Of a stretch of 31,504 nt of DNA, positions 4,775 to 20,065 are shown one piece after another. The first letter of the stretch is position 1. The number at the start of each line of letters is the position of its first letter. The translations under genes were made by a program, and so were the position numbers. The notes under the pieces are model-generated. The model saw only the letters and a program-made list of their open reading frames with translations, was not told the DNA's origin and did not search any database. The DNA comes from Miltoncostaeaceae bacterium (GTDB lineage: Bacteria; Actinomycetota; Thermoleophilia; Miltoncostaeales; Miltoncostaeaceae). The DNA lies in assembly GCA_030598075.1 (NCBI GenBank), contig JAUVQP010000001.1:1-31504 (forward strand), written 5' to 3'.

Positions 4775-6133
4775 CTAGGGGTCTGTCGGCTCCAGGTGGC
4801 GGGCGATCAGCCGCGCGGCCCGCTCCTCGTCGTCCAGCAGTAGCAGGCCGGTCCGCAGGCCGCGGACTCCGGCGGCGCGGTTCTCGAGGGCGAGCTGGGC
4901 AATGCCGTGGGGAAGGTGCGCGTCCGCGTACCGGGGGTCGATCCTGATGCTCCGTTGCGCGGCCTGCACGGCCTCCTCGCCGCGGTCGATCCGCAGCAGG
5001 ACGTAGGCCCGGAAGGCCGCTGCGGCGGCATCCTTGGGGTCGAGTCTCTCGGCGGCGCCGAACGCTCCGACGGAATCGCCGGGCCGCTTGAGCGCCGCGA
5101 GCGCGACGCCGCGTCCGAACGACGCTGCCTCGATGTTCGGGTCCCGCTTGCGGGCCCGGTTGTACGCGCCGAGGGCCGGCTTGTGCCGACCCTCGGCGGT
5201 CAGCATCTCGCCCGCGAGGAGGTGTCCGACCGCGCTCGCCCGCCAGCTTCGCGGCCACCCTGCGAGAAGCCGTTCGGCGCTCTCGGCCTCGTCGGCCTCG
5301 ATCCTTTCCCGCACGGCGGCCGCCGCCAGCGCGAGCGACTTCGGATCGCGTCGTGTGGCCACGCGGAGGGACCGGTCGTAGCTCGGCGCCGTCTCCCAGT
5401 CGGGCGGCGGGGTCATGCGGAGCTCCAGTCGCTCGCCGGCGCGCGTGACGACGACGGGGACCTCGCGGCCCGCGGGCAGCGCGCGCTGGGCGGCGACCAG
5501 CGACCCCGGGCTATCGATGGGACGCCCGTTGAGCGACACGAGGACGTCGCCGCGGCGAATGCCCGCCTTCGCGGCGGCCCCGCGCGGGGCGACCACGGCG
5601 ACGAGCTGACCGGTGCCCGAGAGCCCGGAGGTGCGCGTCAGGACCTTCCAGAGCGGAATGGTGTAGGCGTCGAAGCGGCCGCGGCCCCGCGCGAGGCGAA
5701 GGCGGAACGAGCTGCGCACCGGCTCGCTGGTGCCGGTCGTCTCGCTCGTGGCCTGAACCTCGACGCGGTAGGCGCCGCTCGGAAGCTGGAAGCCGTCGTC
5801 GTCGGTCGCGTCGACGAGGAAGTACGCCCGGCCGGCCGGGTGCGACTCGGACGCCTGGACCGTCTTGAGAAGCTCGCCCGACGACGCCGCGCTCACCCGG
5901 ATGATGATCTGCGCCGCGACCGACGTGCGAATGCCCACAAGAAAGCGCGCATGTCCGCGCTGGGCCCGGACGGTGCGGGCAAGGCGCAGTGACGTGAGCG
6001 CCGGAGGACCGGACGCCTCAGCCTCGGGCGGGTCGGGCTCTTGGGCGGCGGCGAGCGGGCTGACGAGGCCGGCGCCCAGGCCGGCGGCGAGGCCGGCGGC
6101 GATCAGCACGGCGCGCCGGGTGCGGATCGGCAT
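4775..6133 (-). CDS. Secreted protein with Ig/FlgD-like, PDZ and TPR domains
   Basis: Signal peptide (RTRRAVLIAAGLAAG...AAA), DATDDDGFQLPSGAYRVEVQA, PDZ-like GAAAKAGIRRGDVLVSLNGRPI, several TPR-like helical repeats. Confidence 0.75.
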   Translation of the reverse strand: MPIRTRRAVLIAAGLAAGLGAGLVSPLAAAQEPDPPEAEASGPPALTSLRLARTVRAQRGHARFLVGIRTSVAAQIIIRVSAASSGELLKTVQASESHPAGRAYFLVDATDDDGFQLPSGAYRVEVQATSETTGTSEPVRSSFRLRLARGRGRFDAYTIPLWKVLTRTSGLSGTGQLVAVVAPRGAAAKAGIRRGDVLVSLNGRPIDSPGSLVAAQRALPAGREVPVVVTRAGERLELRMTPPPDWETAPSYDRSLRVATRRDPKSLALAAAAVRERIEADEAESAERLLAGWPRSWRASAVGHLLAGEMLTAEGRHKPALGAYNRARKRDPNIEAASFGRGVALAALKRPGDSVGAFGAAERLDPKDAAAAAFRAYVLLRIDRGEEAVQAAQRSIRIDPRYADAHLPHGIAQLALENRAAGVRGLRTGLLLLDDEERAARLIARHLEPTDP

Positions 6134-6215
6134 CGGGCAGCACCCTAACCGCGACGCGGGTCCGAGCTGCATCCGCCCGGGTATCCGGCCGCCGGCGCGA
6201 TAGGTTGGCGGGCGG

Positions 6216-7544
6216 ATGACCGTACCCCCGCCACCCCTTGCCCCCGTCGAGGTTCTGGAGCGAGCGGCGCGCGGAGCCGTCGTCGACGCGGCGAGTGTGG
6301 GCGGTCTCGTGCGCGCGTGGGTCGATGGGATCGCCAGCGACGCTCAGATGGCTGCGTGGTGCGCCCTCGCGTCGGCGCGCGGACTCGACGTCGCGGCGGT
6401 GGACGAGGTCACGCGGGCCCTCATCGCGTCGGGCAGACGCCTCGATCTGACCCGCCTCGGGCCGGTCGGCGCGCCGCTTTCCACCGGCGCGGTTGGGGAT
6501 TCCAGCTCGCTGCTGGCGCCTCCGATCGCGGCTGCCCTCGGCGTGCGGGTCGCGACGATGGCCGAGCCGAGCCTCGGTCCGGCCGGCGGCGCGCTCGACA
6601 AGCTGGGGGCGATCCCCGGGTTTCGAGCGGATCTTCCCTTGGATCGTTTCGTACGGCAGGTCCGCGACGTCGGCATCGCGGTCGCCGGTGCCGGGGGGCG
6701 GTTGGCGCCCGCGGACAGCCGCCTCACCGCGCTCCGCGACCAAACCGGGAGTGCCCGGAGCGATGCTCTGGTCGCGGCGTCGCTCATGAGCCGCGCCATC
6801 GCCACCGGCGCGACAGCGATCGCCGTCAATCTGGGGGTCGGCGAGGGGGCTCTGCTCGGCCGAGCCGAGGACGCGGTGAGATCCGCGTCCGCCATGCACC
6901 AATTGGGCGAGTCCTGGGGCAGGGGCGTGCGATGGATCGTAACCTCCGCGGATCGCCCACTCGGGCGCTTCGTCGGCAATGCTTTGGAGGTGCGCGAGGC
7001 GGCAGCCGTACTCACCGGCGAGGGGCCGGACGATCTTCGGGAGTTGGCGGGGCGGCTCGCGGGCGATCTCGCGGAGCTTGCGGGCGCCGTACCCGAGGGA
7101 GAGGGCGTGGGGCGTGCCGCCCGGGTACTCCGCGATGGCTCGGCGCTGCGGCTCGCCGAGCGGTGGATCGAGGCCCAGGAGGGCGATCCGGACGTCTGGA
7201 CGAATCCCGCCGTCCTCGCGCGAGCTCCGGTCGAGCAGGCGGTCGGGGCGCCGGCGGCCGGGGTGCTCCGGTCGATCTCCGCCCGGCGTGTCGGCGAGGC
7301 TGCGCGCTGGCTTGGCGCGGGACGACTGCACGCCCAGCAGACCGTCGATCCCCTCACCGGAGTGGAGTTGCTCGCGGGCATCGGCGATGCGGTGCAGGTC
7401 GGCGATGCCATCGCGCTCGTGCACGCGCGGGACGCGGGCCTCGTCGGTCGAGCCGTGGAGATGGTCGCCGGCGCGGTCGCCATCGGCGACGAGGGCGAGC
7501 CTCCGGCGCCGCTGATCCTCGACGCGGGCGGATCCGGTGCCTGA
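6216..7544 (+). CDS. Thymidine/pyrimidine-nucleoside phosphorylase homolog with degenerate active site
   Basis: STGAVGD, GGALDKL.AIPG, LAPADSRLTALRD, GRFVGNALEVREA, C-terminal LGAGR domain; KH and K.S motifs replaced. Confidence 0.85.
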   Translation: MTVPPPPLAPVEVLERAARGAVVDAASVGGLVRAWVDGIASDAQMAAWCALASARGLDVAAVDEVTRALIASGRRLDLTRLGPVGAPLSTGAVGDSSSLLAPPIAAALGVRVATMAEPSLGPAGGALDKLGAIPGFRADLPLDRFVRQVRDVGIAVAGAGGRLAPADSRLTALRDQTGSARSDALVAASLMSRAIATGATAIAVNLGVGEGALLGRAEDAVRSASAMHQLGESWGRGVRWIVTSADRPLGRFVGNALEVREAAAVLTGEGPDDLRELAGRLAGDLAELAGAVPEGEGVGRAARVLRDGSALRLAERWIEAQEGDPDVWTNPAVLARAPVEQAVGAPAAGVLRSISARRVGEAARWLGAGRLHAQQTVDPLTGVELLAGIGDAVQVGDAIALVHARDAGLVGRAVEMVAGAVAIGDEGEPPAPLILDAGGSGA

Positions 7545-8370
7545 GCTTCCCGAGGTCGAGACGATTCGGCGGCAGCTCGACGTGCGTCTGCCCGGGCGTC
7601 GCATCGAGCGGGCGACGGTTCTCGACCCGAAGCTCACCGCTCCGGAGTCGCCGCAGAGCATCGAGGACGGCCTTGGGGGGCGGGTTGTGAGAACCGTGGC
7701 GCGCCGTGGGAAGTACCTCTCCCTGGTGCTGGATGGTGGGGACGAGCTCGTTCTCCACCTCCGGATGACGGGGCGGCTCCACTGGCGTTCCGGATCCGAG
7801 GTCGACGAGCGCTACCTGCGTGCCCTGCTGACCTTCGACGACGGAAGCACGCTGACCTTCGGCGACGCGCGCCGCTTCGGAACCGCCCGTCTCCTTCGCG
7901 CCGGCTCCGATGACCACGCCGCGTACTGGGATGGGCGCGTTGGCGTGGAGCCGCTCTCGGCGGACTTCACGGGCCGTGTGCTCGCCGAGCTGCTGGCCGC
8001 TCGGAGGGGCCCGATCAAGCCGCTGCTCCTGAACCAAGCCCTGGTTGCGGGTCTCGGAAACATGTACGTGGACGAGGCATTGTTCGCCGCGCGGGTACAC
8101 CCCCTCCGTGTGGCGGGGGGCCTGGACGCCGACGAGACACGCCGTCTTCATCGCGCGATTCGCGACCGGCTGAGGGTGGCCGTGGAGGCGGGCGGGGCCT
8201 CGATCGACAGCTATCGCGACGGGCTGGGCGAGCGTGGCTCGATGCAGGGCCTGCTCCGCGTGCACCTGCGCGCGGGCGACCCGTGCCCCCGCTGCCGGGT
8301 TCCAGTCCGCAAGACGAGCGTCGGCGGTCGCGGGACGTACTGGTGCCCGAGCTGCCAGGAGGACCCATGA
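7537..8370 (+). CDS. mutM: Formamidopyrimidine-DNA glycosylase / AP lyase
   Basis: PELPEV N-terminus, RRGKYL, HLRMTG, GLGNMYVDE, C-terminal CPRC..CPSC zinc finger. Confidence 0.97.
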   Translation: MPELPEVETIRRQLDVRLPGRRIERATVLDPKLTAPESPQSIEDGLGGRVVRTVARRGKYLSLVLDGGDELVLHLRMTGRLHWRSGSEVDERYLRALLTFDDGSTLTFGDARRFGTARLLRAGSDDHAAYWDGRVGVEPLSADFTGRVLAELLAARRGPIKPLLLNQALVAGLGNMYVDEALFAARVHPLRVAGGLDADETRRLHRAIRDRLRVAVEAGGASIDSYRDGLGERGSMQGLLRVHLRAGDPCPRCRVPVRKTSVGGRGTYWCPSCQEDP

Positions 8371-9323
8371 TCAGCGAGATCACGGGGTTTCGGGTCGGTC
8401 ATTGGACGGATCGCGCGGCCGGCACCGGGTGCACCGCCATCATTCCGCCGCCCGGGATCGTCGCCGCCGTCGACGTCCGGGGCGGAGGGGCCAGCACGAG
8501 GGAGACGGAGCTGCTTCGCGCGACCTCCTCGGTACGTTCGGCCACGGCCGTGATCCTGGCCGGCGGGAGCGCGTTCGGGCTCGACGCCGCGTCCGGCGCG
8601 GTGCGGTGGTGCGAGGAGCACGGGCTCGGGTACGACACCGGGGTTGTCCGCGTCCCGCTGGTTCCCGCCGCCGTCATCTTCGATCTGGGCGTGAGCGGCG
8701 GGGAGGGGCGCCCGGGCGTCGACGAAGGCTACGCGGCGTGCGTCGCCGCGGCGGAGGGAGCACACGACGTCGGGAGCGTCGGTGCCGGAACCGGCGCGAC
8801 GGTGGGCAAGCTTCGCGCCCGGGAGGGCTGGTGCAAGGGCGGGCTTGGCGCGGCGGGCACGACGACTCACGACGGGTCCCGCGTGGCCGCCCTCGCGGTG
8901 GCCAACTGCTGGGGAGACGTGCTGGACGAGGGGGGGGCGGTGCTCGCGGGCGCGTGGTCGCCGGAGCGCGGGTTCGTGGGCGCCGCCCACCAGGCCTTCT
9001 CGACCCCGCCGGAACACCCCCGGCTTCGGCCCGGCGAGAGCACCACGCTCGTGTGCGTGGCCACGGATGCCCGTCTCGCCCCGGATGAGGCCGGCCAGGT
9101 CGCCCGCATGGCCCAGGCGGGTCTCGGGCGCGCGGTGGCTCCGCTGAACACGCCGATGGACGGCGACGTCGTTTTCTGCCTCGCCTCTGGCGGCACGGAG
9201 GGGAGGCCGTTCGCGGTGGGCGCCGCCGCCGCGGAGGTCAGCGCCGCCGCCGTCAGAGACGCGGTCAGGCGGGCGACGTCCGTTCGTGGGGTACCGACCG
9301 CGGCCGAGCGGCGGGGGGACTAG
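8367..9323 (+). CDS. P1/DmpA-like (S58) peptidase
   Basis: VGHWTD, AVDVRGGG..TRETELL, LAGGSAFGL, GSVGAGTGA, STTLVCVATDA, DGDVVF; ATGA overlap with mutM stop. Confidence 0.9.
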   Translation: MISEITGFRVGHWTDRAAGTGCTAIIPPPGIVAAVDVRGGGASTRETELLRATSSVRSATAVILAGGSAFGLDAASGAVRWCEEHGLGYDTGVVRVPLVPAAVIFDLGVSGGEGRPGVDEGYAACVAAAEGAHDVGSVGAGTGATVGKLRAREGWCKGGLGAAGTTTHDGSRVAALAVANCWGDVLDEGGAVLAGAWSPERGFVGAAHQAFSTPPEHPRLRPGESTTLVCVATDARLAPDEAGQVARMAQAGLGRAVAPLNTPMDGDVVFCLASGGTEGRPFAVGAAAAEVSAAAVRDAVRRATSVRGVPTAAERRGD

Positions 9324-9574
9324 GCGAGCAGCGGGTCGAGCGCGCCAGCGTCCTCGAGAGCCTTGAGCTGGTCCCAGCCGCCGATGGCCGCGTCATCGAT
9401 GATGATCTGCGGCACCGTGTAGCGCCCCGTGAGCTCGGCGAGCCTGTGCCGGGCGTCGCCGTCGAACCGCGAGAGCCGGATCTCCTCGTACTCGGCACCC
9501 TTGCGGTCCAGGAGGCGTTTGGCCCTCGTGCAGTACGCGCACGCCCTGCTCGTGTACATGGTGATCTCGGCCAT
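9320..9574 (-). CDS. Glutaredoxin (GrxC-like, CAYC)
   Basis: CAYC active site, TVPQI, IGGWDQL; GGAG SD before ATG 9574. Confidence 0.9.
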   Translation of the reverse strand: MAEITMYTSRACAYCTRAKRLLDRKGAEYEEIRLSRFDGDARHRLAELTGRYTVPQIIIDDAAIGGWDQLKALEDAGALDPLLA

Positions 9575-9660
9575 CGTCTCCACTCGTCGTCGTCTTCAAA
9601 GCTGCGCTTGACCAGCGTGCCACACCGTGGTGCCCCGGCGCCCTGCGAGAATGCGCGGCG

Positions 9661-10413
9661 GTGGCGACATTCGAGACTGAGGCCGTCGTGCTCCGGGCGA
9701 TCCGCTACTCGGAGGCCGACAACGTGCTCACCCTGTACACGCGGGATCGCGGCCGGGCGTCGGCGATCGTCAAGGGTGCTCGCCGGCCGCGATCCCGCCT
9801 TGGTGGCCGGCTCCAGCCCGGCGTCGTCGTCCGCGTGACGATCGCGGAGGGAAGGCGCGGGCTCGGGGCGGTCAGGGACGCGAGCGTCATCGACCCGAAC
9901 GCCGGGCTTTGGGCCCACGCCACGCGCCTGCTGGCGGCCGGGAGCGTCTTGGAGGGAGCGCTTCGCACCCTTCCCGACGGCGACCCCAACGAGGCGGCGT
10001 TCCACCTGCTGCGCAACGCCGTAGCGCTCCTCGCGCGCTCCTCCGCCCATCCGGGTCCGCCGCGCCTCGACCCCCTCGTCCTCGGCGCCCACGTCAAGCT
10101 GCTGGTCGTCGCGGGGTTGCTGCCCGCGCTCGGATCGTGTGTCTCGTGCGGGTCGATCGGCACGTTTCCGGGCTTCTCCGCGTCGCGTGGGGGCGTGCTG
10201 TGCGGAGACTGCTCGGCGGGCGCCGAGCCACTGAGCAGGCGCGGCTACGAGGCTCTCGCGGGCCTGTTGGGTCGTCCTCTTTCCGAGGCGCGGGGCGCCT
10301 GCCCCCCCGAGGCGGCCGAGGACGTCGAGCGGGTCGTGGGCCTCGTGCTCCGCGAGCATCTCGGAGTCACCCTTCGATCCGCCCTCAGCCCCGAGGTCTC
10401 GTCACGCCGCTGA
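9661..10413 (+). CDS. recO: DNA repair protein RecO
   Basis: TEAVVLRAIRYSEADNVLTLYTRDRG, KGARRPRSRLGGRLQP, CVSCG...LCGDC zinc motif; upstream of glyQ. Confidence 0.93.
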   Translation: MATFETEAVVLRAIRYSEADNVLTLYTRDRGRASAIVKGARRPRSRLGGRLQPGVVVRVTIAEGRRGLGAVRDASVIDPNAGLWAHATRLLAAGSVLEGALRTLPDGDPNEAAFHLLRNAVALLARSSAHPGPPRLDPLVLGAHVKLLVVAGLLPALGSCVSCGSIGTFPGFSASRGGVLCGDCSAGAEPLSRRGYEALAGLLGRPLSEARGACPPEAAEDVERVVGLVLREHLGVTLRSALSPEVSSRR

Positions 10414-10463: not shown

Positions 10464-11337
<874 letters not shown>

Positions 11338-11345
<8 letters not shown>

Positions 11346-13421
11346 TCTGCTCCTCGAGATCGGGTGCGAGGAGCTACCGGGAATCGCGTGCCGAGAGGCC
11401 ATCGAGCAGTGCCCGGCGCTCGTGCGCGACGCGCTCCGCGACGCCCGGTTAACATCCGGGGATGTCACGGTCTGGGTCTCTCCGCGGCGCATCGCGGTCG
11501 CCGTGGCCGACCTCTCGGACGAGCGCCCGGGGCGCACCCGGTCGAGCCGTGGGCCGTCGGAGTCGGCGGCGTACGAAGACGGCGAGCCATCGAAGGCCGC
11601 TCGGGGCTTCGCCCGGGGCCAGGGCGTTGCGGTCGAGGCTCTGGTGGTGCGTGAGCACGAGGGCCGTGCGTTCGTGTTCGCGGACGTCGAGGAGCCGGCC
11701 ACGCCAGCCGCCGAGCTCGTGCCGGGAGTCGCCGCGGCGCTGGTCGACGGCCTTCGCTTCGGAAAGACCATGCGCTGGGGATCGGGAAGGGGCCTGCGCT
11801 TCTCGCGACCCGTGCGCTGGCTGGTGGCGAAGCTCGGCGGGCGGACCGTCGAGTTCGAGCTTCACGGCCTCAGGGCGGGCGAGATCACGCAGGGGCACCG
11901 CTTCCTCGGCGAGCCGGGCGCGATCGCGGACGCCGCCGACTACCGCGAGACGCTCCGCGGGCTCGGGGTCGTGGTCGATCACGATCAGCGCCGAGACGAG
12001 ATCGTCGCGAGCCTCGACTCGGCCGCGGCCGCGGCGGGGGGGCGTTGGGAGGATCCCGGCAGCGCTCTGGACGAGGTGGTTTTCCTCGTGGAGCGCCCGA
12101 GCGTCATCGGCGGAGCGTTCGACGCGACGCATCTGCGTCTCCCGCGACGCGTTCTGGTGACCGCCATGCAGTCGCACCAGCGGTACTTCCCCCTGATCTC
12201 GGAGGACGGCGCGCTGATGCCGCGGTTCCTCGCCGTCAGCAACGGGGATCCGGCGCACGCCGAGCTCATCGCGCGCGGCAACGAGGACGTGCTGGAAGCG
12301 CGCCTTCAGGACGCGGCCTTCAGCTTCGACGTCGACCGGAAGGCAGGCCTCGCCGCGCTCGACGCGCGCCTTTCCGCGATCGTCTTCCATCAGCGCCTGG
12401 GCAGCATGGCGGACAAGCGAGATCGGCTGATCGAGGGCGTCGGTGCGCTCGCCGAGGCGGCCGGTGTTCCGGCGCTCGATCGCCACCGGGCGATCGAGGC
12501 CGCGCGGCTGGCGAAAGCGGACCAAGGTGCGGTGCTCGTGGCCGAGTTCTCGGAACTGGAGGGCTACGTCGCCGCCCAGTACGCGCTCCGCGAGGGCCAC
12601 GATGCCGAGGTGGCCGCCGCGATGGCCGACCAGTATCTGCCGGACGGCCCGGAATCGCCGCTCCCGGGCAGCGTGGCGGGGGCCCTGCTGGCGGCCGCGG
12701 ACAGGGTCGACAATCTGGTCGGCGCGTTCTTGGTCGACGAGGCCCCCACCGGGTCTCGTGATCCATATGGCCTGCGGCGTGCGGCGGCGGGGCTCGTGCG
12801 GATCCTGCTCGCGCACGGCTGGGACCTCTCGCTTTCCGCGGCACTGAGCGCCGCCGCGGCGAGACTTCGCCGCCAGGGCGCCGACCTCGTGTTCCACGAT
12901 GGCGACGCGGTCACGGCCGTCACCGCCTTCGTCACCGACCGCCTGGCTCACCAGATGGCTGCGGAGGGCGTGGGGGCGGAGGCGGTCGCGGCGGCCGATG
13001 GCGCCGCGCTGGACTCGGTGGTGGTCGTGGCGGACTGGGCGCGCGGCGTCCAGAGCGCGGGCGCCGATCCTCGGTTCGTCGCGGCTTGGACCGCGTGCAC
13101 CCGCCTGGCGAGGCTCGCGGCCCGCGCCGAGACCGATCAGGCGTTCAGCTCGGTGGGGGATCCGGGGGAGGATGCTCTTGCCGACGCCGTCGGGGCCGCC
13201 GGGCCGGCCATCGAGCGCGCGCGGGAGCGGCGCGACGTCGCGGGGGCTCTCGCCGCCGCGGGCTCCCTCGCCGAGCCGGTCGACAGGTTCTTCGAGGACG
13301 TCCTCGTCAACGCGGACGATCCGGCGGATCGGGCTCGGCGGTATGCGCTCGTGAGCCTGGCCGCGGCGACGCTGGCGCGCGCCGCGGACTTCAGCCGCCT
13401 CACCGAGGGGGGAGGGGTCCT

Positions 13422-13425
<4 letters not shown>
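11338..13425 (+). CDS. glyS: Glycine-tRNA ligase beta subunit
   Basis: [53 protein letters not shown]; overlaps glyQ stop. Confidence 0.97.
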
Positions 13426-16076
<2,651 letters not shown>

Positions 16077-16103
16077 GCCCGTCCGGACCCGTTCTGCTGA
16101 GCG

Positions 16104-16610
16104 TCAGGCCGTGCGGATGACGCAGCGCCCCGTCCCTCGGCACGACTCGCACTCGTCGGCCTCGCCGGCCGCGTGGGCCAGGCAGTGCTCCGCGCGCGAG
16201 CGCACGACGTCCGCCATCAGCGGATGCAGGCCGAGCGGAGACGACACCAGGTAGCGCACGGCCGGGTGCCGCTCCGCGGCCTCGCGCGCGAGGGCCGGGA
16301 TGTCCTGGCTCCAGTGGCGGCCGGGCAGGAGGAAGTACGGGCTGACGATGACGAGCTCGGCCCCCTGATCGACGCAGCGGTCGAAGGCGGTGCCGATGGA
16401 GGGCTCGGCCAGCTCCATGTGCGCCGGCTGGACGATGGGCCAACGGACCGACGCTCGGATCATCCTCGTCATCTCGACCAGCATCGCGTTGGACTCCTCG
16501 ACGCGCGAGCCGTGGTCGACGACGACGAGGCCGATGTGGCGCGAGTCCGGGAGCTCGTGCGGGTGTACCATCACGGGGCGCCGTGAAAGGACGTCACGAG
16601 GAGTCAGCAT
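16104..16610 (-). CDS. Sirohydrochlorin chelatase (SirB/CbiX-S type) with C-terminal Cys cluster
   Basis: VVDHGSR, AHMELAEPSI, PYFLLPGRHWSQDIP, tail HCLAH...ECESCRGTGRC; alternative start 16571. Confidence 0.88.
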   Translation of the reverse strand: MLTPRDVLSRRPVMVHPHELPDSRHIGLVVVDHGSRVEESNAMLVEMTRMIRASVRWPIVQPAHMELAEPSIGTAFDRCVDQGAELVIVSPYFLLPGRHWSQDIPALAREAAERHPAVRYLVSSPLGLHPLMADVVRSRAEHCLAHAAGEADECESCRGTGRCVIRTA

Positions 16611-16650
16611 ACCCCCCGATCAGGCGTACAGGCTGGGGAGCCTCGGTGAT

Positions 16651-17346
16651 GTGATCGAGCTGATCGTCGATGGCTGGGCCGTCGACCATCTCTCGTACGC
16701 GGACCGAAGCGGCGCCTCGGGCAGCGCGGGCCCGCCCGGTGCGCTCATCGCGTTGCGCCGGGGGCGGGAGCGCGAGTGGCTCTGCGTTCCCGATGACGCA
16801 CGCCACTACTCGCATCGGGCGCTCGTCGCGCTCTTTCGCGAGCGCCCGCAGATCTGGAAGTACCGCACGTCCGAGGGGGCGGCGGCGGCGGCGGCCGACG
16901 CGACCCCGCCGGACGATTGGGCCGATGTCTCGGAGCCCTTTCCCGAGACCGCCGGGATCTCGGCCAAGAGCCTTCGCGGGGTCGAGGCCGTCAACCTCAG
17001 CCAAGCGGTCGGCGGAACGATCATCGCGCTGACGGCCATCGAGCGCTACGACACCGCCGCGCGCCTCAGGCTCCTCCTCGAGGACGCCGAGATCGACCTG
17101 AGGCGCGACCCCCGCCTGCTCGACGTCGTCGCGGTCGACGACCGGGCGCGCCTCTATCGCGTCGCGACCGTGGAGCAGGTGCGCGGGGCGGGTCTCGCGG
17201 AGGGGGAGATCATCATCGGGCCGGCTCCGCCGCGCGAGATCGCGCTCCTGACGGTGGTCATCGGCTCGTTGGGCGACCGAGACCACGGGACCGCGCCCAT
17301 CGAGGGGCCGTGGGTGTTCCCCATCGTGTTGGGATCCCGGGGATGA
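16651..17346 (+). CDS. Hypothetical two-domain protein
   Basis: Coding-like codon usage, GGGGAG before GTG 16651, stop overlaps dgt start (ATGA). Confidence 0.65.
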   Translation: MIELIVDGWAVDHLSYADRSGASGSAGPPGALIALRRGREREWLCVPDDARHYSHRALVALFRERPQIWKYRTSEGAAAAAADATPPDDWADVSEPFPETAGISAKSLRGVEAVNLSQAVGGTIIALTAIERYDTAARLRLLLEDAEIDLRRDPRLLDVVAVDDRARLYRVATVEQVRGAGLAEGEIIIGPAPPREIALLTVVIGSLGDRDHGTAPIEGPWVFPIVLGSRG

Positions 17347-18341
17347 ACCCGGCGGCCGTCACGCGCGAGCCGGGCCTGGGGCCCAGGGCCGCGCGGGCCT
17401 CCGGCGCCGTGCGCGCCCGCCCGGAGGCCGCTCATGCCTACCGCACCGCCTTTCAGCGCGACCGCGACCGCATCATCCACTCCAAGGCGTTCCGCAGGCT
17501 AAAGCACAAGACGCAGGTCTTCGTGGCGCCCGAAGGGGACCACTACCGGACCCGGCTGACCCACACTCTCGAGGTGTCGGCGCTGGCCCGGACCGTCGCT
17601 CGGGCGCTCGCGCTCAACGAGGACCTTGCGGAGGCGATCGCCCTCGGCCACGATCTGGGCCACGCACCCTTCGGGCACGCCGGCGAGGAGGCGCTCGACG
17701 ACATCGTTCGCGGTCGAGCCGGCCGGCGCTTCGAGCACAACGTTCAGAGCGTGCGCGTGGTCGATGTGCTCGAGCGGGACGGAGCGGGTCTCAACCTGAC
17801 CGAGGACGTGCGCGACGGCATCCTTCATCACACCGGCGGCGGCTCGCCCGCGACGCTGGAGGGCCAGATCGTGCGTCTGCTCGATCGCGTCGCGTACGTC
17901 AACCACGACATCGAGGACGCGCTTCTGGCGGGAGTCATCGCCGCGGACGATCTGCCGGAGGACTGCGTCGCGGTTCTGGGCGAGACGAGCAGCGAGCGTC
18001 TCACGACCCTGGTGGGAGACGTGGTCGCGCAGAGCGCGAGCGGCGACGAGATCCGCCAGTCCCGCGAGGTCGGAATGGCCTTCGGCCGCCTGCGTGCCTT
18101 CATGTTCAGGAGCGTCTATCTGGCCCCTCCTGCGAGCGAGGAGGCCGCTCGTGCGCGGCGGGTGGTGCAGGCGCTCTTCGAGCACTATCTGGAGAGCCCG
18201 GACGACCTTCCGGCGTCGCCGGAGCACGATCCTCTGAGCCGCGTCACGGACTTTGTCTCGGGCATGACGGATCGCTATGCCCTTCGCGCCTACAGCGATC
18301 TCTTCCTTCCCCGCGAGGGCCCGGGCTCGTCATGGCGCTGA
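17343..18341 (+). CDS. dgt: Deoxyguanosinetriphosphate triphosphohydrolase-like HD protein
   Basis: RTAFQRDRDRIIHSKAFRRLKHKTQVF, RTRLTHTLEV, ALGHDLGHAPFGHAGE, DFVSGMTDRYA. Confidence 0.93.
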   Translation: MNPAAVTREPGLGPRAARASGAVRARPEAAHAYRTAFQRDRDRIIHSKAFRRLKHKTQVFVAPEGDHYRTRLTHTLEVSALARTVARALALNEDLAEAIALGHDLGHAPFGHAGEEALDDIVRGRAGRRFEHNVQSVRVVDVLERDGAGLNLTEDVRDGILHHTGGGSPATLEGQIVRLLDRVAYVNHDIEDALLAGVIAADDLPEDCVAVLGETSSERLTTLVGDVVAQSASGDEIRQSREVGMAFGRLRAFMFRSVYLAPPASEEAARARRVVQALFEHYLESPDDLPASPEHDPLSRVTDFVSGMTDRYALRAYSDLFLPREGPGSSWR

Positions 18342-20065
18342 TCGCCGAACGCAGCGTCGAGGAGGTCCGGGCGGCCGCCGACCTGGTCGAGCTGATCCGG
18401 GGGCGGGTCGACCTCGTGCGCCGAGGCGGGCGCTGGTGGGGCCGGTGTCCTTTCCACGAGGAGCGCACCCCGTCGTTCTGCCTCATTCCGCCCGAGAACA
18501 CGACGTACTACTGCCACGGCTGCGGCGCCAGCGGCGACGCCATCGCCTGGATGCAGGATCAGGAGGGCGCCGCCGGCTTCGTGGAGGCCATCGAGGGTCT
18601 CGCGGAGCGTTTCGGGGTCAACCTCAGCTATCAGGAGGAGTCCTCCGACGAGCGCGCCGAGCGGGCGGCGACCGAACGGCGCCGCGAGCTCCTCGCTCGG
18701 GCCGCAACCTTCTACGCCGAGTACCTCTGGCGCGGGGACGACGCGGCGCCAGCCCGCGAGTACCTCGCCGGGCGCGGCTTCGACGAGGCTCTCTGCCGGC
18801 GGTTCGGGGTGGGCTACGCGCCCGGGTCGGGCGATGCCCTCGCGGGCCGGGCGCTTCGCCAGGGCTTCACCCGGCAGCAGCTGTCCGACGCGGGCCTCGC
18901 CCGCCTGGGCGGTGGGCGCGCCACGGACTTCTTCGCGGCGCGCATCATGTTCCCGATCGCCGACGGCCGGGGCCGCGTGCAGGGTTTCGGCGGCCGAACC
19001 TTGGACCCCGGCGAGCGGGCGAAGTACGTCAACTCGCCCGAGGGGGAGGCGTTCCGCAAGCGCCGCCTGCTGTTCGGGCTCGCGTCCGCGCGCGAGGCCG
19101 CGGCGAGGGCCGGCGGCATCGTGGTCGCCGAGGGGTACACCGATGTCCTCGGCTTGGCGGCGGCCGGCATCGACGCCGCCGTGGCGTGCATGGGCACGAG
19201 CCTCACTTCGGACCAGCTCCGCCTGCTCGCGCGGTCGACGTCGGAGGTACGGCTCTGCTTCGATGCGGACCCCGCGGGGGAGGAGGCCGCCTGGCGGACC
19301 GTCGAGGCGGCGGCCGGCATACCCCTCCGCCTCTCCGCGGTGCAACTGCCCCACGGCCGGGACCCCGGAGACCTCGCGGCCGACGCCGACGGCCGCGTAG
19401 AGCTCGTCCGCGCGGTCGACGCGAGCGAACCTCTGCTAGCTTCCCTGATCCGCTCGCGCGCCGCGCGAGCAGGGGAATCCGCCCGAGCGCGGGATGACGC
19501 GGTTGCCGACATTGCCGGCCTGCTCGAGCGTTTTCCCGACTCTGTCGAGAAGGATGAGGGGGTTCGGTTGGCGGCAGGTTTGCTCCGACTGTCGCAGGGG
19601 ATGGAGCGGCGCCTGCTCGACGGGTTCCTCGTCGGCGCGCGCGAGACGACCCATCGGGGGAAAGCGGCGGATGGCGAGCCGCAGAGCCCACGGGCGGCGC
19701 GGGAGCAGCGCCTCCTCGCACTCGCGCTGGCCGACGAGCGCGGCGAGGCGCGGCAGATGCTCGACAGCCTTCCCGAAGGCGCGTTTGAGGAGCCCGCTCA
19801 CCGAGAGGCGTTTCGACGCCTGCGCGACGGAGTGCCGCCCGAGAGTTGGCCTGCCGAGGACGGGAAGCTCCTCATCCAGCTCCGGGTGGCTGTGGCGGAT
19901 GCGCCGCCCGGAGACGACGAGCTCTCCGAGGCCGTCTACCGCCTTCAGGAGGATCTGCTCCAGCGGCGCGTCCACGTGCTCCGCGAGCAGGGCGACGACG
20001 CAGAGCTCATGCGTGCGCTGGATCTCCTGGCACGGGTTCGCGAGCGACTGCGGAGCGTCGGATGA
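18332..20065 (+). CDS. dnaG: DNA primase
   Basis: [11 protein letters not shown]...CHGC zinc-binding domain, FGGRTL, KYVNSPE, TOPRIM EGYTDV and FDADPAG. Confidence 0.96.

Follow-up and report, generated by a model that had tools for sequence, protein, structure and literature searches.

A mutM-linked homologue of pyrimidine-nucleoside phosphorylase in Miltoncostaeaceae, probably conserved as a protein without phosphorolytic activity

Why would a bacterium keep a full-length gene for a pyrimidine-nucleoside phosphorylase (PyNP) whose active site appears to have been dismantled, and keep it overlapping the start of the repair gene mutM? The question is raised by a PyNP-like open reading frame (ORF) at positions 6216-7544 (plus strand) of a 31,504-nucleotide stretch of contig JAUVQP010000001.1, hereafter the window, which belongs to a metagenome-assembled genome (MAG) of the family Miltoncostaeaceae (class Thermoleophilia) that comprises 1.37 Mb and is 73% complete. 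This genome is designated G000 and the protein encoded by the ORF P0001. The explanation favoured here, which is probably the right one, is that P0001 belongs to a mutM-linked clade of PyNP paralogues in Miltoncostaeaceae, that it no longer works as a phosphorylase, and that purifying selection retains it as a folded protein.

The main departure of P0001 from its family concerns the active site. In PyNPs, the residues D80, K81, H82, K108, Q153, Y165 and K188 are strictly conserved, K81 and K108 binding phosphate and H82 being catalytic (PMC13629066). P0001 holds none of these seven residues and four of the 13 residues of the extended pocket. Residue numbers are those of Geobacillus PyNP (1BRW), the closest solved structure found by HMMER alignment (E 1e-70), and correspond to the P0001 number minus 6 from residue 87 on. 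Residues 86-96 of P0001 read APLSTGAVGDS instead of DKHSTGGVGDT, and the degenerate Gly-rich phosphate loop GAPLSTGAVGDS (12 residues; 6468..6503, plus strand) carries the changes D80A, K81P, H82L and G86A, with S83, T84 and D89 kept. The phosphate/ribose loop AKMSGRGLGHTGGT has become ATMAEPSLGPAGGA at residues 113-126 (6552..6593, plus strand), in which K108T, S110A, R112P, H116P and T120A are accompanied by G111E, G113S and T117A. The LRD motif (6732..6740, plus strand) preserves both the base-binding Arg (R174, equivalent to R168 of 1BRW) and the Asp, and SIMSKK is found as SLMSRA (6780..6797, plus strand), where S183 (S189 in P0001) is kept, K187 is changed to Arg and K188 to Ala; Q153A and Y165T were also observed. 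In this alignment, the substitutions listed in the initial annotation fall exactly at the positions given for them. Of the phosphate-binding set K81, K108, S83, S110 and T120, S83 alone is kept, and the catalytic His82 is a Leu. As for the nucleoside contacts, R168 and S183 are kept, K187 is an Arg, and Q153, Y165 and K188 are lost. The full set of retained residues comprises S83, T84, G85, G88, D89, D122, K123, R168, D169, S183, M185 and S186. P0001 is thus an intact, folded PyNP in which neither the phosphate pocket nor the catalytic His is left, and judged by these residues phosphorolysis would have been lost.

The gene that encodes this altered pocket is whole. It consists of 442 codons with no internal stop, and its GC content at third codon positions (GC3) is of coding type, being equal to that of mutM (0.83). 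Three Pfam domains (Glycos_trans_3N, Glycos_transf_3 and PYNP_C) were detected in P0001, each over its cut-off, and an AlphaFold2 model built with 60 orthologues as input reached a mean predicted local distance difference test score (pLDDT) of 95.7 and a predicted template modelling score (pTM) of 0.94. By Foldseek, this model had template modelling (TM) scores of 0.91 to 1BRW and 0.90 to human thymidine phosphorylase (TP), so that the full-length, three-domain protein first described from the sequence is also predicted to fold. Among the NCBIfam models, P0001 passed the 'thymidine phosphorylase' equivalog NF004490 (314.9 bits, cut-off 269) and stayed under the cut-offs of TIGR02644 (302.9 vs 409), NF004747 (264.7 vs 559) and TIGR02643 (222.9 vs 570.7). 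Two antisense ORFs on the minus strand, at 6018-7661 (547 codons) and 6344-7483 (379 codons), were rejected as high-GC artefacts, the plus frame being the one with coding GC3 and low rates of protein change. The degenerate motif is not an assembly artefact: three separate studies of marine and marine-sediment metagenomes gave independent contigs in which the motif region shows 0-2 differences. In a marine-sediment metatranscriptome (run X20, word depth 166), one 230-nt contig corresponding to 6333-6562 was found with one synonymous difference, which hints weakly at best at in situ transcription of the PyNP-like gene, DNA carry-over being possible.

That the altered protein is maintained was revealed by the ratio of non-synonymous to synonymous substitution rates (dN/dS), calculated by the Nei-Gojobori method on unsaturated pairs. 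Three pairs of degenerate copies presented dN/dS of 0.14 (L082/L086, dS 0.11), 0.08 (L090/L098, dS 0.37) and 0.15 (L103/L109, dS 0.26), and two pairs of canonical orthologues presented 0.17 (L078/L081, dS 0.11) and 0.13 (L089/L092, dS 0.29). Purifying selection on the degenerate copies is as strong as on the active orthologues. Within the genus of the window, where 187-258 codons from the relatives G001 and P0120 were available, these two differed from each other with a dN/dS of 0.094 over 187 codons, and G000 differed from both with a dN/dS of about 0.2 at dS 1.3-1.4, a value that is probably an overestimate because dS is near saturation. The G000 branch is not accelerated, since its sister sequences are as far from the outgroups as G000 itself. 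Moreover, the nearest relatives (P0002, P0120 and G001) share A-E-P in place of the S-G-R loop, and the degenerate state therefore dates back to the origin of the genus or earlier. Among strain variants in metagenome contigs, the PyNP-like gene had four synonymous and three non-synonymous differences and mutM seven and five; the numbers are small, but the pattern agrees with that of the dN/dS values. With enzyme-family homology, loss of the catalytic residues and purifying selection (dN/dS 0.08-0.2), in a set of at least 36 degenerate sequences, P0001 fits the operational definition of a pseudoenzyme, at least for phosphorolysis.

The degenerate state extends well outside the window. In a search of 40 related genomes, a PyNP homologue was found in 24 of 24 Miltoncostaeaceae genera, and the PyNP-like clade covers marine and freshwater actinobacteria of this family. 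The mutM-linked copies form a graded series: they are canonical in G020, G024 and G005, others are changed at K81 alone, and in G012, G022, G003, G010 and G018 the LRD motif and the Gly loop have also been lost. Among 115 clusters of full-length nearest homologues, all seven core residues are kept in six and two or fewer in 51. In a maximum-likelihood tree, a fully supported branch parts the linked clade of Miltoncostaeaceae from every canonical sequence, P0001 falls within an all-degenerate set of 27 rows (Shimodaira-Hasegawa-like approximate likelihood ratio test, 96), and at least three changes are required to explain where the degenerate state occurs. By this reckoning, the linked copy of Miltoncostaeaceae appears to have degenerated independently at least three times. 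Whether orthologues share the substitutions and the linkage to mutM had been asked when the locus was first read; they share both the degeneration and the linkage.

A second, unlinked PyNP/TP copy with a canonical TP-type pocket was found in many Miltoncostaeaceae genomes. In the three loci examined (L034, L039 and L043, from G007, G014 and G013, respectively), this gene lies in a cluster that encodes adenosine deaminase, a HAD hydrolase, cytidine deaminase, TP, PnrA/Bmp and an ABC ATPase, in that order; the add-cdd-TP-PnrA cluster is a standard nucleoside-salvage locus. The loop of the unlinked TP is V-P-Q-L-S-G-R, as in TP-type enzymes, and not A-K-M-S-G-R. The second copy was present in one of about seven genomes whose linked copy keeps at least 11 of the 13 pocket residues and in 11 of the 18 genomes whose linked copy keeps nine or fewer, counts that are descriptive only, the genomes being related to one another. 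In five genomes of 93-99% completeness (G002, G008, G012, G015 and G019), the degenerate linked copy is the sole PyNP/TP. A canonical deoA/pdp elsewhere, for which a look was first proposed at this locus, is thus often present in relatives. In the 73% complete genome of the window, neither a second PyNP/TP copy nor an adenosine deaminase was found, and a PnrA cluster of the salvage type was likewise not found, the single Bmp/PnrA gene lying in an unrelated GntR-amidohydrolase context.

The linkage to mutM has its own history. In Miltoncostaeaceae, the homologue was found immediately before mutM, in the same orientation, wherever the contig allowed this to be checked. Among all retrieved sequences, the pdp-like gene and mutM are paired in 85 loci, the commonest overlaps being of 8 nt (24 loci), 1 nt (16) and 17 nt (13), and a gene of the S58 peptidase family comes next after mutM in 67 of them. 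The surrounding block, conserved through Miltoncostaeaceae, is represented in the window by a divergent PDZ/TPR protein gene (4775..6172, minus strand), the PyNP-like gene, mutM/fpg (7537..8370, plus strand; 277 aa, in which the catalytic residues P2, E3 and K59 are intact, as are the four zinc-finger Cys), the DmpA-like peptidase S58 gene (8367..9323, plus strand), a glutaredoxin gene, grx (9320..9583, minus strand), and recO (9661..10413, plus strand). Its further surroundings (73-2304 and 10464-20065) are of a housekeeping and DNA-metabolism kind, with a UvrD-like helicase, glyQ, glyS, pyruvate phosphate dikinase and dnaG primase. In the sister family Gaiellaceae, the order is pdp, mutM, grx (minus strand) and recO, and the enzyme presents 13 of 13 canonical pocket residues. 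In other families of Thermoleophilia and in other phyla, the PyNP copies are canonical and not linked to mutM. Because Gaiellaceae share the linkage with a canonical enzyme, it is ancestral and predates the loss of the active site.

Records of five lake-metagenome MAGs (L094, L103, L117, L109 and L075) carry the same PDZ, PyNP-like, mutM, S58, grx and recO block of the Miltoncostaeaceae type and are titled 'Bifidobacterium breve', 'uncultured Bifidobacterium sp.' or 'Acidobacteria bacterium'. These labels look wrong, because the sequences cluster within the degenerate clade that has the motif D-I-R-S.

At the junction itself, mutM starts with GTG at 7537, reading GTG-CCT-GAG (M-P-E), and the TGA of the PyNP-like gene ends at 7544, which corroborates the 8-nt overlap described at the outset; an N-terminal Pro-Glu is obligatory in Fpg. 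The overlap GTGCCTGA (GTG-CCT-GA; 7537..7544, plus strand) therefore comprises the mutM start codon and the Pro2 codon CCT, which gives the upstream TGA stop. In 24 of 24 loci with the 8-nt overlap, the Pro2 codon of MutM is CCT, and the loci with CCG or CCC are spaced differently (-17 or -1). CCT is probably rare in a genome of 72% GC, which suggests selection on the 8-nt overlap itself. The mutM stop is in turn overlapped by the ATG of the S58 gene at 8367 (ATGA), with GGAGGA shortly upstream (8358-8370 for the whole overlap region), so that the PyNP-like gene, mutM and the S58 gene are three consecutive overlapping genes, the S58 gene being the third of the coupled run. At some loci (L011 (G014:C27), L085, L090, L096, L062 and L124), the usual stop of the PyNP-like frame is missing and the frame continues 85-830 nt into mutM, and in G014 mutM is apparently frameshifted near its middle, leaving an open frame of 713 codons; either errors of assembly or genuine read-through or fusion may account for such frames.

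Could this arrangement mean that P0001 serves MutM, or base-excision repair, as a dedicated accessory that binds MutM, damaged DNA or an excised oxidised base in the manner of YbiB? The stop/start overlap across the family, its maintenance by a probably rare Pro codon at every locus with the 8-nt spacing, the retention of the PyNP-like gene even in genomes without an active paralogue, and the proximity of recO and a UvrD-like helicase are all points in favour, and the superfamily offers a precedent in YbiB, a DNA-binding TrpD2 protein (PMC10123104). However, the initial annotation had taken the linkage as a sign of a new repair role, and this loses its force when the same conserved housekeeping block, older than the active-site loss, is shared with the canonical enzyme of Gaiellaceae. 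The likeness to YbiB as a DNA binder found no support either, since P0001 has the three-domain layout of PyNP and not that of TrpD2, and is strongly acidic (net charge -10, isoelectric point 5.0), as is the degenerate clade (median charge -18), unlike a nucleic-acid binder. A complex prediction for P0001 and MutM, with alignments of 60 rows each, returned a score of 0.00, against a mark of 0.32, a result that bears on binding neither way. A role as a partner in base-excision repair or as a sensor of damaged bases is possible for P0001, and yet a dedicated accessory of this kind is unlikely; so is its more specific form, for which we would give similarly low odds, in which the dead PyNP is co-made stoichiometrically with MutM and captures the excised oxidised base or gates MutM through the retained base-binding subsite.

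A different view is that P0001 is still an enzyme, with a pocket remodelled for another chemistry or substrate, such as phosphate-independent glycosyl transfer or hydrolysis, or a modified nucleoside. What remains constrained in the degenerate copies bears directly on it. Positions that are conserved in at least 90% of canonical sequences and in less than 50% of degenerate ones lie largely in the pocket (K81, H82, S110-G115, T117, T120, K123, Y165 and S183-K188, and also K201 and F207), and about 49 positions, mostly structural, are conserved across both groups. In 36 degenerate sequences, the phosphate subsite turns small or hydrophobic (K81 to I, V or L; K108 to S; S110 to G; T120 to V, L or A), and D80 is kept in 29, S83 in 29, D89 in 31, D122 in 32 and R168 in 28, with K187 changed to Arg in 28. 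Pocket conservation was 0.97-0.98 in the canonical clades (0.65-0.70 in the rest of the protein), 0.82 in the degenerate D-I-R-S subclade (0.68) and 0.32 in the most diverged group (0.36). Strong purifying selection, the wide retention of the Gly-rich loop, D80, D89, D122 and R168, and the raised pocket conservation of the D-I-R-S subclade would suit an altered enzyme. Nevertheless, the replacements vary by subclade and, with K81 also becoming P in some copies, K108 T or A, and S110 A, are mostly small or hydrophobic, with no new shared polar constellation; the pocket residues of P0001 differ from those of relatives of its own genus at 62-69% identity; and the lost residues are present in all characterised NP-II enzymes found among solved structures (PMC13629066). 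The possibility of a remodelled enzyme is best argued for the D-I-R-S subclade, not for P0001, for which it is quite improbable.

The proposal that P0001 is a decaying relic, whose frame stays open only since early termination would cut the translation of mutM and S58, the two genes coupled to it by overlaps, could appeal to the overlaps of the three genes (-8 and ATGA), the drift of the pocket residues, the loss of the normal stop at some loci and the very long branches of some members, but it is largely refuted and very improbable, as dN/dS near 1 would be expected under simple decay, and equally for a bare frame kept as a source of ribosomes for mutM, whereas the observed values resemble those of active orthologues, three Pfam domains and a model of very high confidence were obtained, and the structural positions remain conserved in both groups. 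The suspicion of a conserved pseudoenzyme in place of simple decay, raised when the locus was first read, is upheld in this respect, at least for phosphorolysis.

The preferred explanation, a non-phosphorolytic paralogue held by selection for its fold, can be set out as a sequence of events suggested by the tree and by synteny. An active pdp would have resided in an ancestral pdp-mutM-grx-recO block, as it does in present Gaiellaceae, and many Miltoncostaeaceae genomes would have come to hold a second, canonical TP in the add-HAD-cdd-TP-PnrA salvage cluster. The phosphate pocket and the catalytic His would then have disappeared from the mutM-linked copy on several occasions, to differing degrees, and some small-genome lineages, probably including that of the window, would later have lost the salvage cluster, leaving the dead copy only. 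As for the protein, P0001 would still have the fold of a PyNP, together with the Gly-rich loop and the base-contacting Arg/Asp/Arg of the alpha domain, but with the phosphate subsite filled by small or hydrophobic residues; phosphate could not be positioned for phosphorolysis, and for this reason the selected role would be non-catalytic. Through the overlaps of stop and start codons, it would be synthesised in lockstep with MutM and the S58 peptidase. Compared with its genus relatives, P0001 diverges in the former phosphate loops about as much as in the rest of the protein, and LRDQTG and S-x-MSRA are common to all. Our reading of this pattern is that the phosphate and catalytic subsite has been given up, that the base-contacting helix residues of the alpha domain are still held, be it for ligand contact or for structure, and that the whole fold is under selection. 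The binding of a nucleobase or nucleoside-like ligand, or service as a structural subunit, would be the most likely roles. The base sensor initially envisaged finds weak support in R168, D169 and the K187-to-Arg change, kept in about 78% of degenerate members; the loss of Y165, Q153 and K188 speaks against it, as does the former phosphate pocket in the genus of the window, conserved no better than the rest.

Four points weigh against this explanation. The loss of catalysis is read from residues only. The absence of a canonical TP from the genome of the window is not established at 73% completeness. Selection on the exact G000 lineage is less firmly supported than in other degenerate clades, with dS near saturation and a tiny variant count. 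Finally, the most diverged members (branches of 0.8-1.4) have lost R168 and conserve the pocket no better than the rest, and a single ligand-binding role across the whole clade is doubtful.

No description of a PyNP/TP pseudoenzyme or of a pdp-mutM (TP-fpg) operon was found in the literature searched. Because P0001 passes NF004490, pipelines annotate such proteins as 'thymidine phosphorylase', and metabolic reconstructions would wrongly credit Miltoncostaeaceae genomes that probably lack pyrimidine-nucleoside salvage with it. The clade offers a clean natural series that begins with an active enzyme and ends with a pocket stripped completely, with at least three apparently independent losses, a redundant paralogue and undiminished purifying selection, which makes it a good system in which to ask why pseudoenzymes persist. 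If the role did concern MutM, a textbook repair enzyme would gain an additional partner, and bacterial base-excision repair a new protein component derived from a salvage enzyme.

Among the known systems, the closest is the PyNP (Pdp) of Geobacillus stearothermophilus, with which P0001 shares the three-domain architecture and the fold (35% identity), the Gly-rich STG.VGD loop, D122-K123, R168 and S183, and from which it differs by replacement of D80, K81, H82, K108, S110, R112, H116, T120, Q153, Y165 and K188. The thymidine phosphorylases (DeoA of E. coli, 1TPT/1AZY, and human TYMP) share the NP-II fold, and against them P0001 presents the same active-site losses; the true TP-type paralogue of Miltoncostaeaceae is the separate gene of the salvage cluster. 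The orthologues of Gaiellaceae, in the same class, have the same gene order with tight spacing, but each is the sole PyNP copy of its genome and, with its complete pocket, is presumably active. YbiB/TrpD2 of E. coli, a non-enzymatic offshoot of the NP-II/TrpD superfamily, provides a precedent for reuse of the fold without catalysis; it is, however, a two-domain, TrpD-like nucleic-acid binder, whereas P0001 is an acidic three-domain PyNP with PYNP_C and a marginal trpD match (E 0.0047). Altogether, the residues, tree and selection suggest that the P0001 clade is best classed, within the NP-II phosphorylases, as a conserved branch that does not carry out phosphorolysis.

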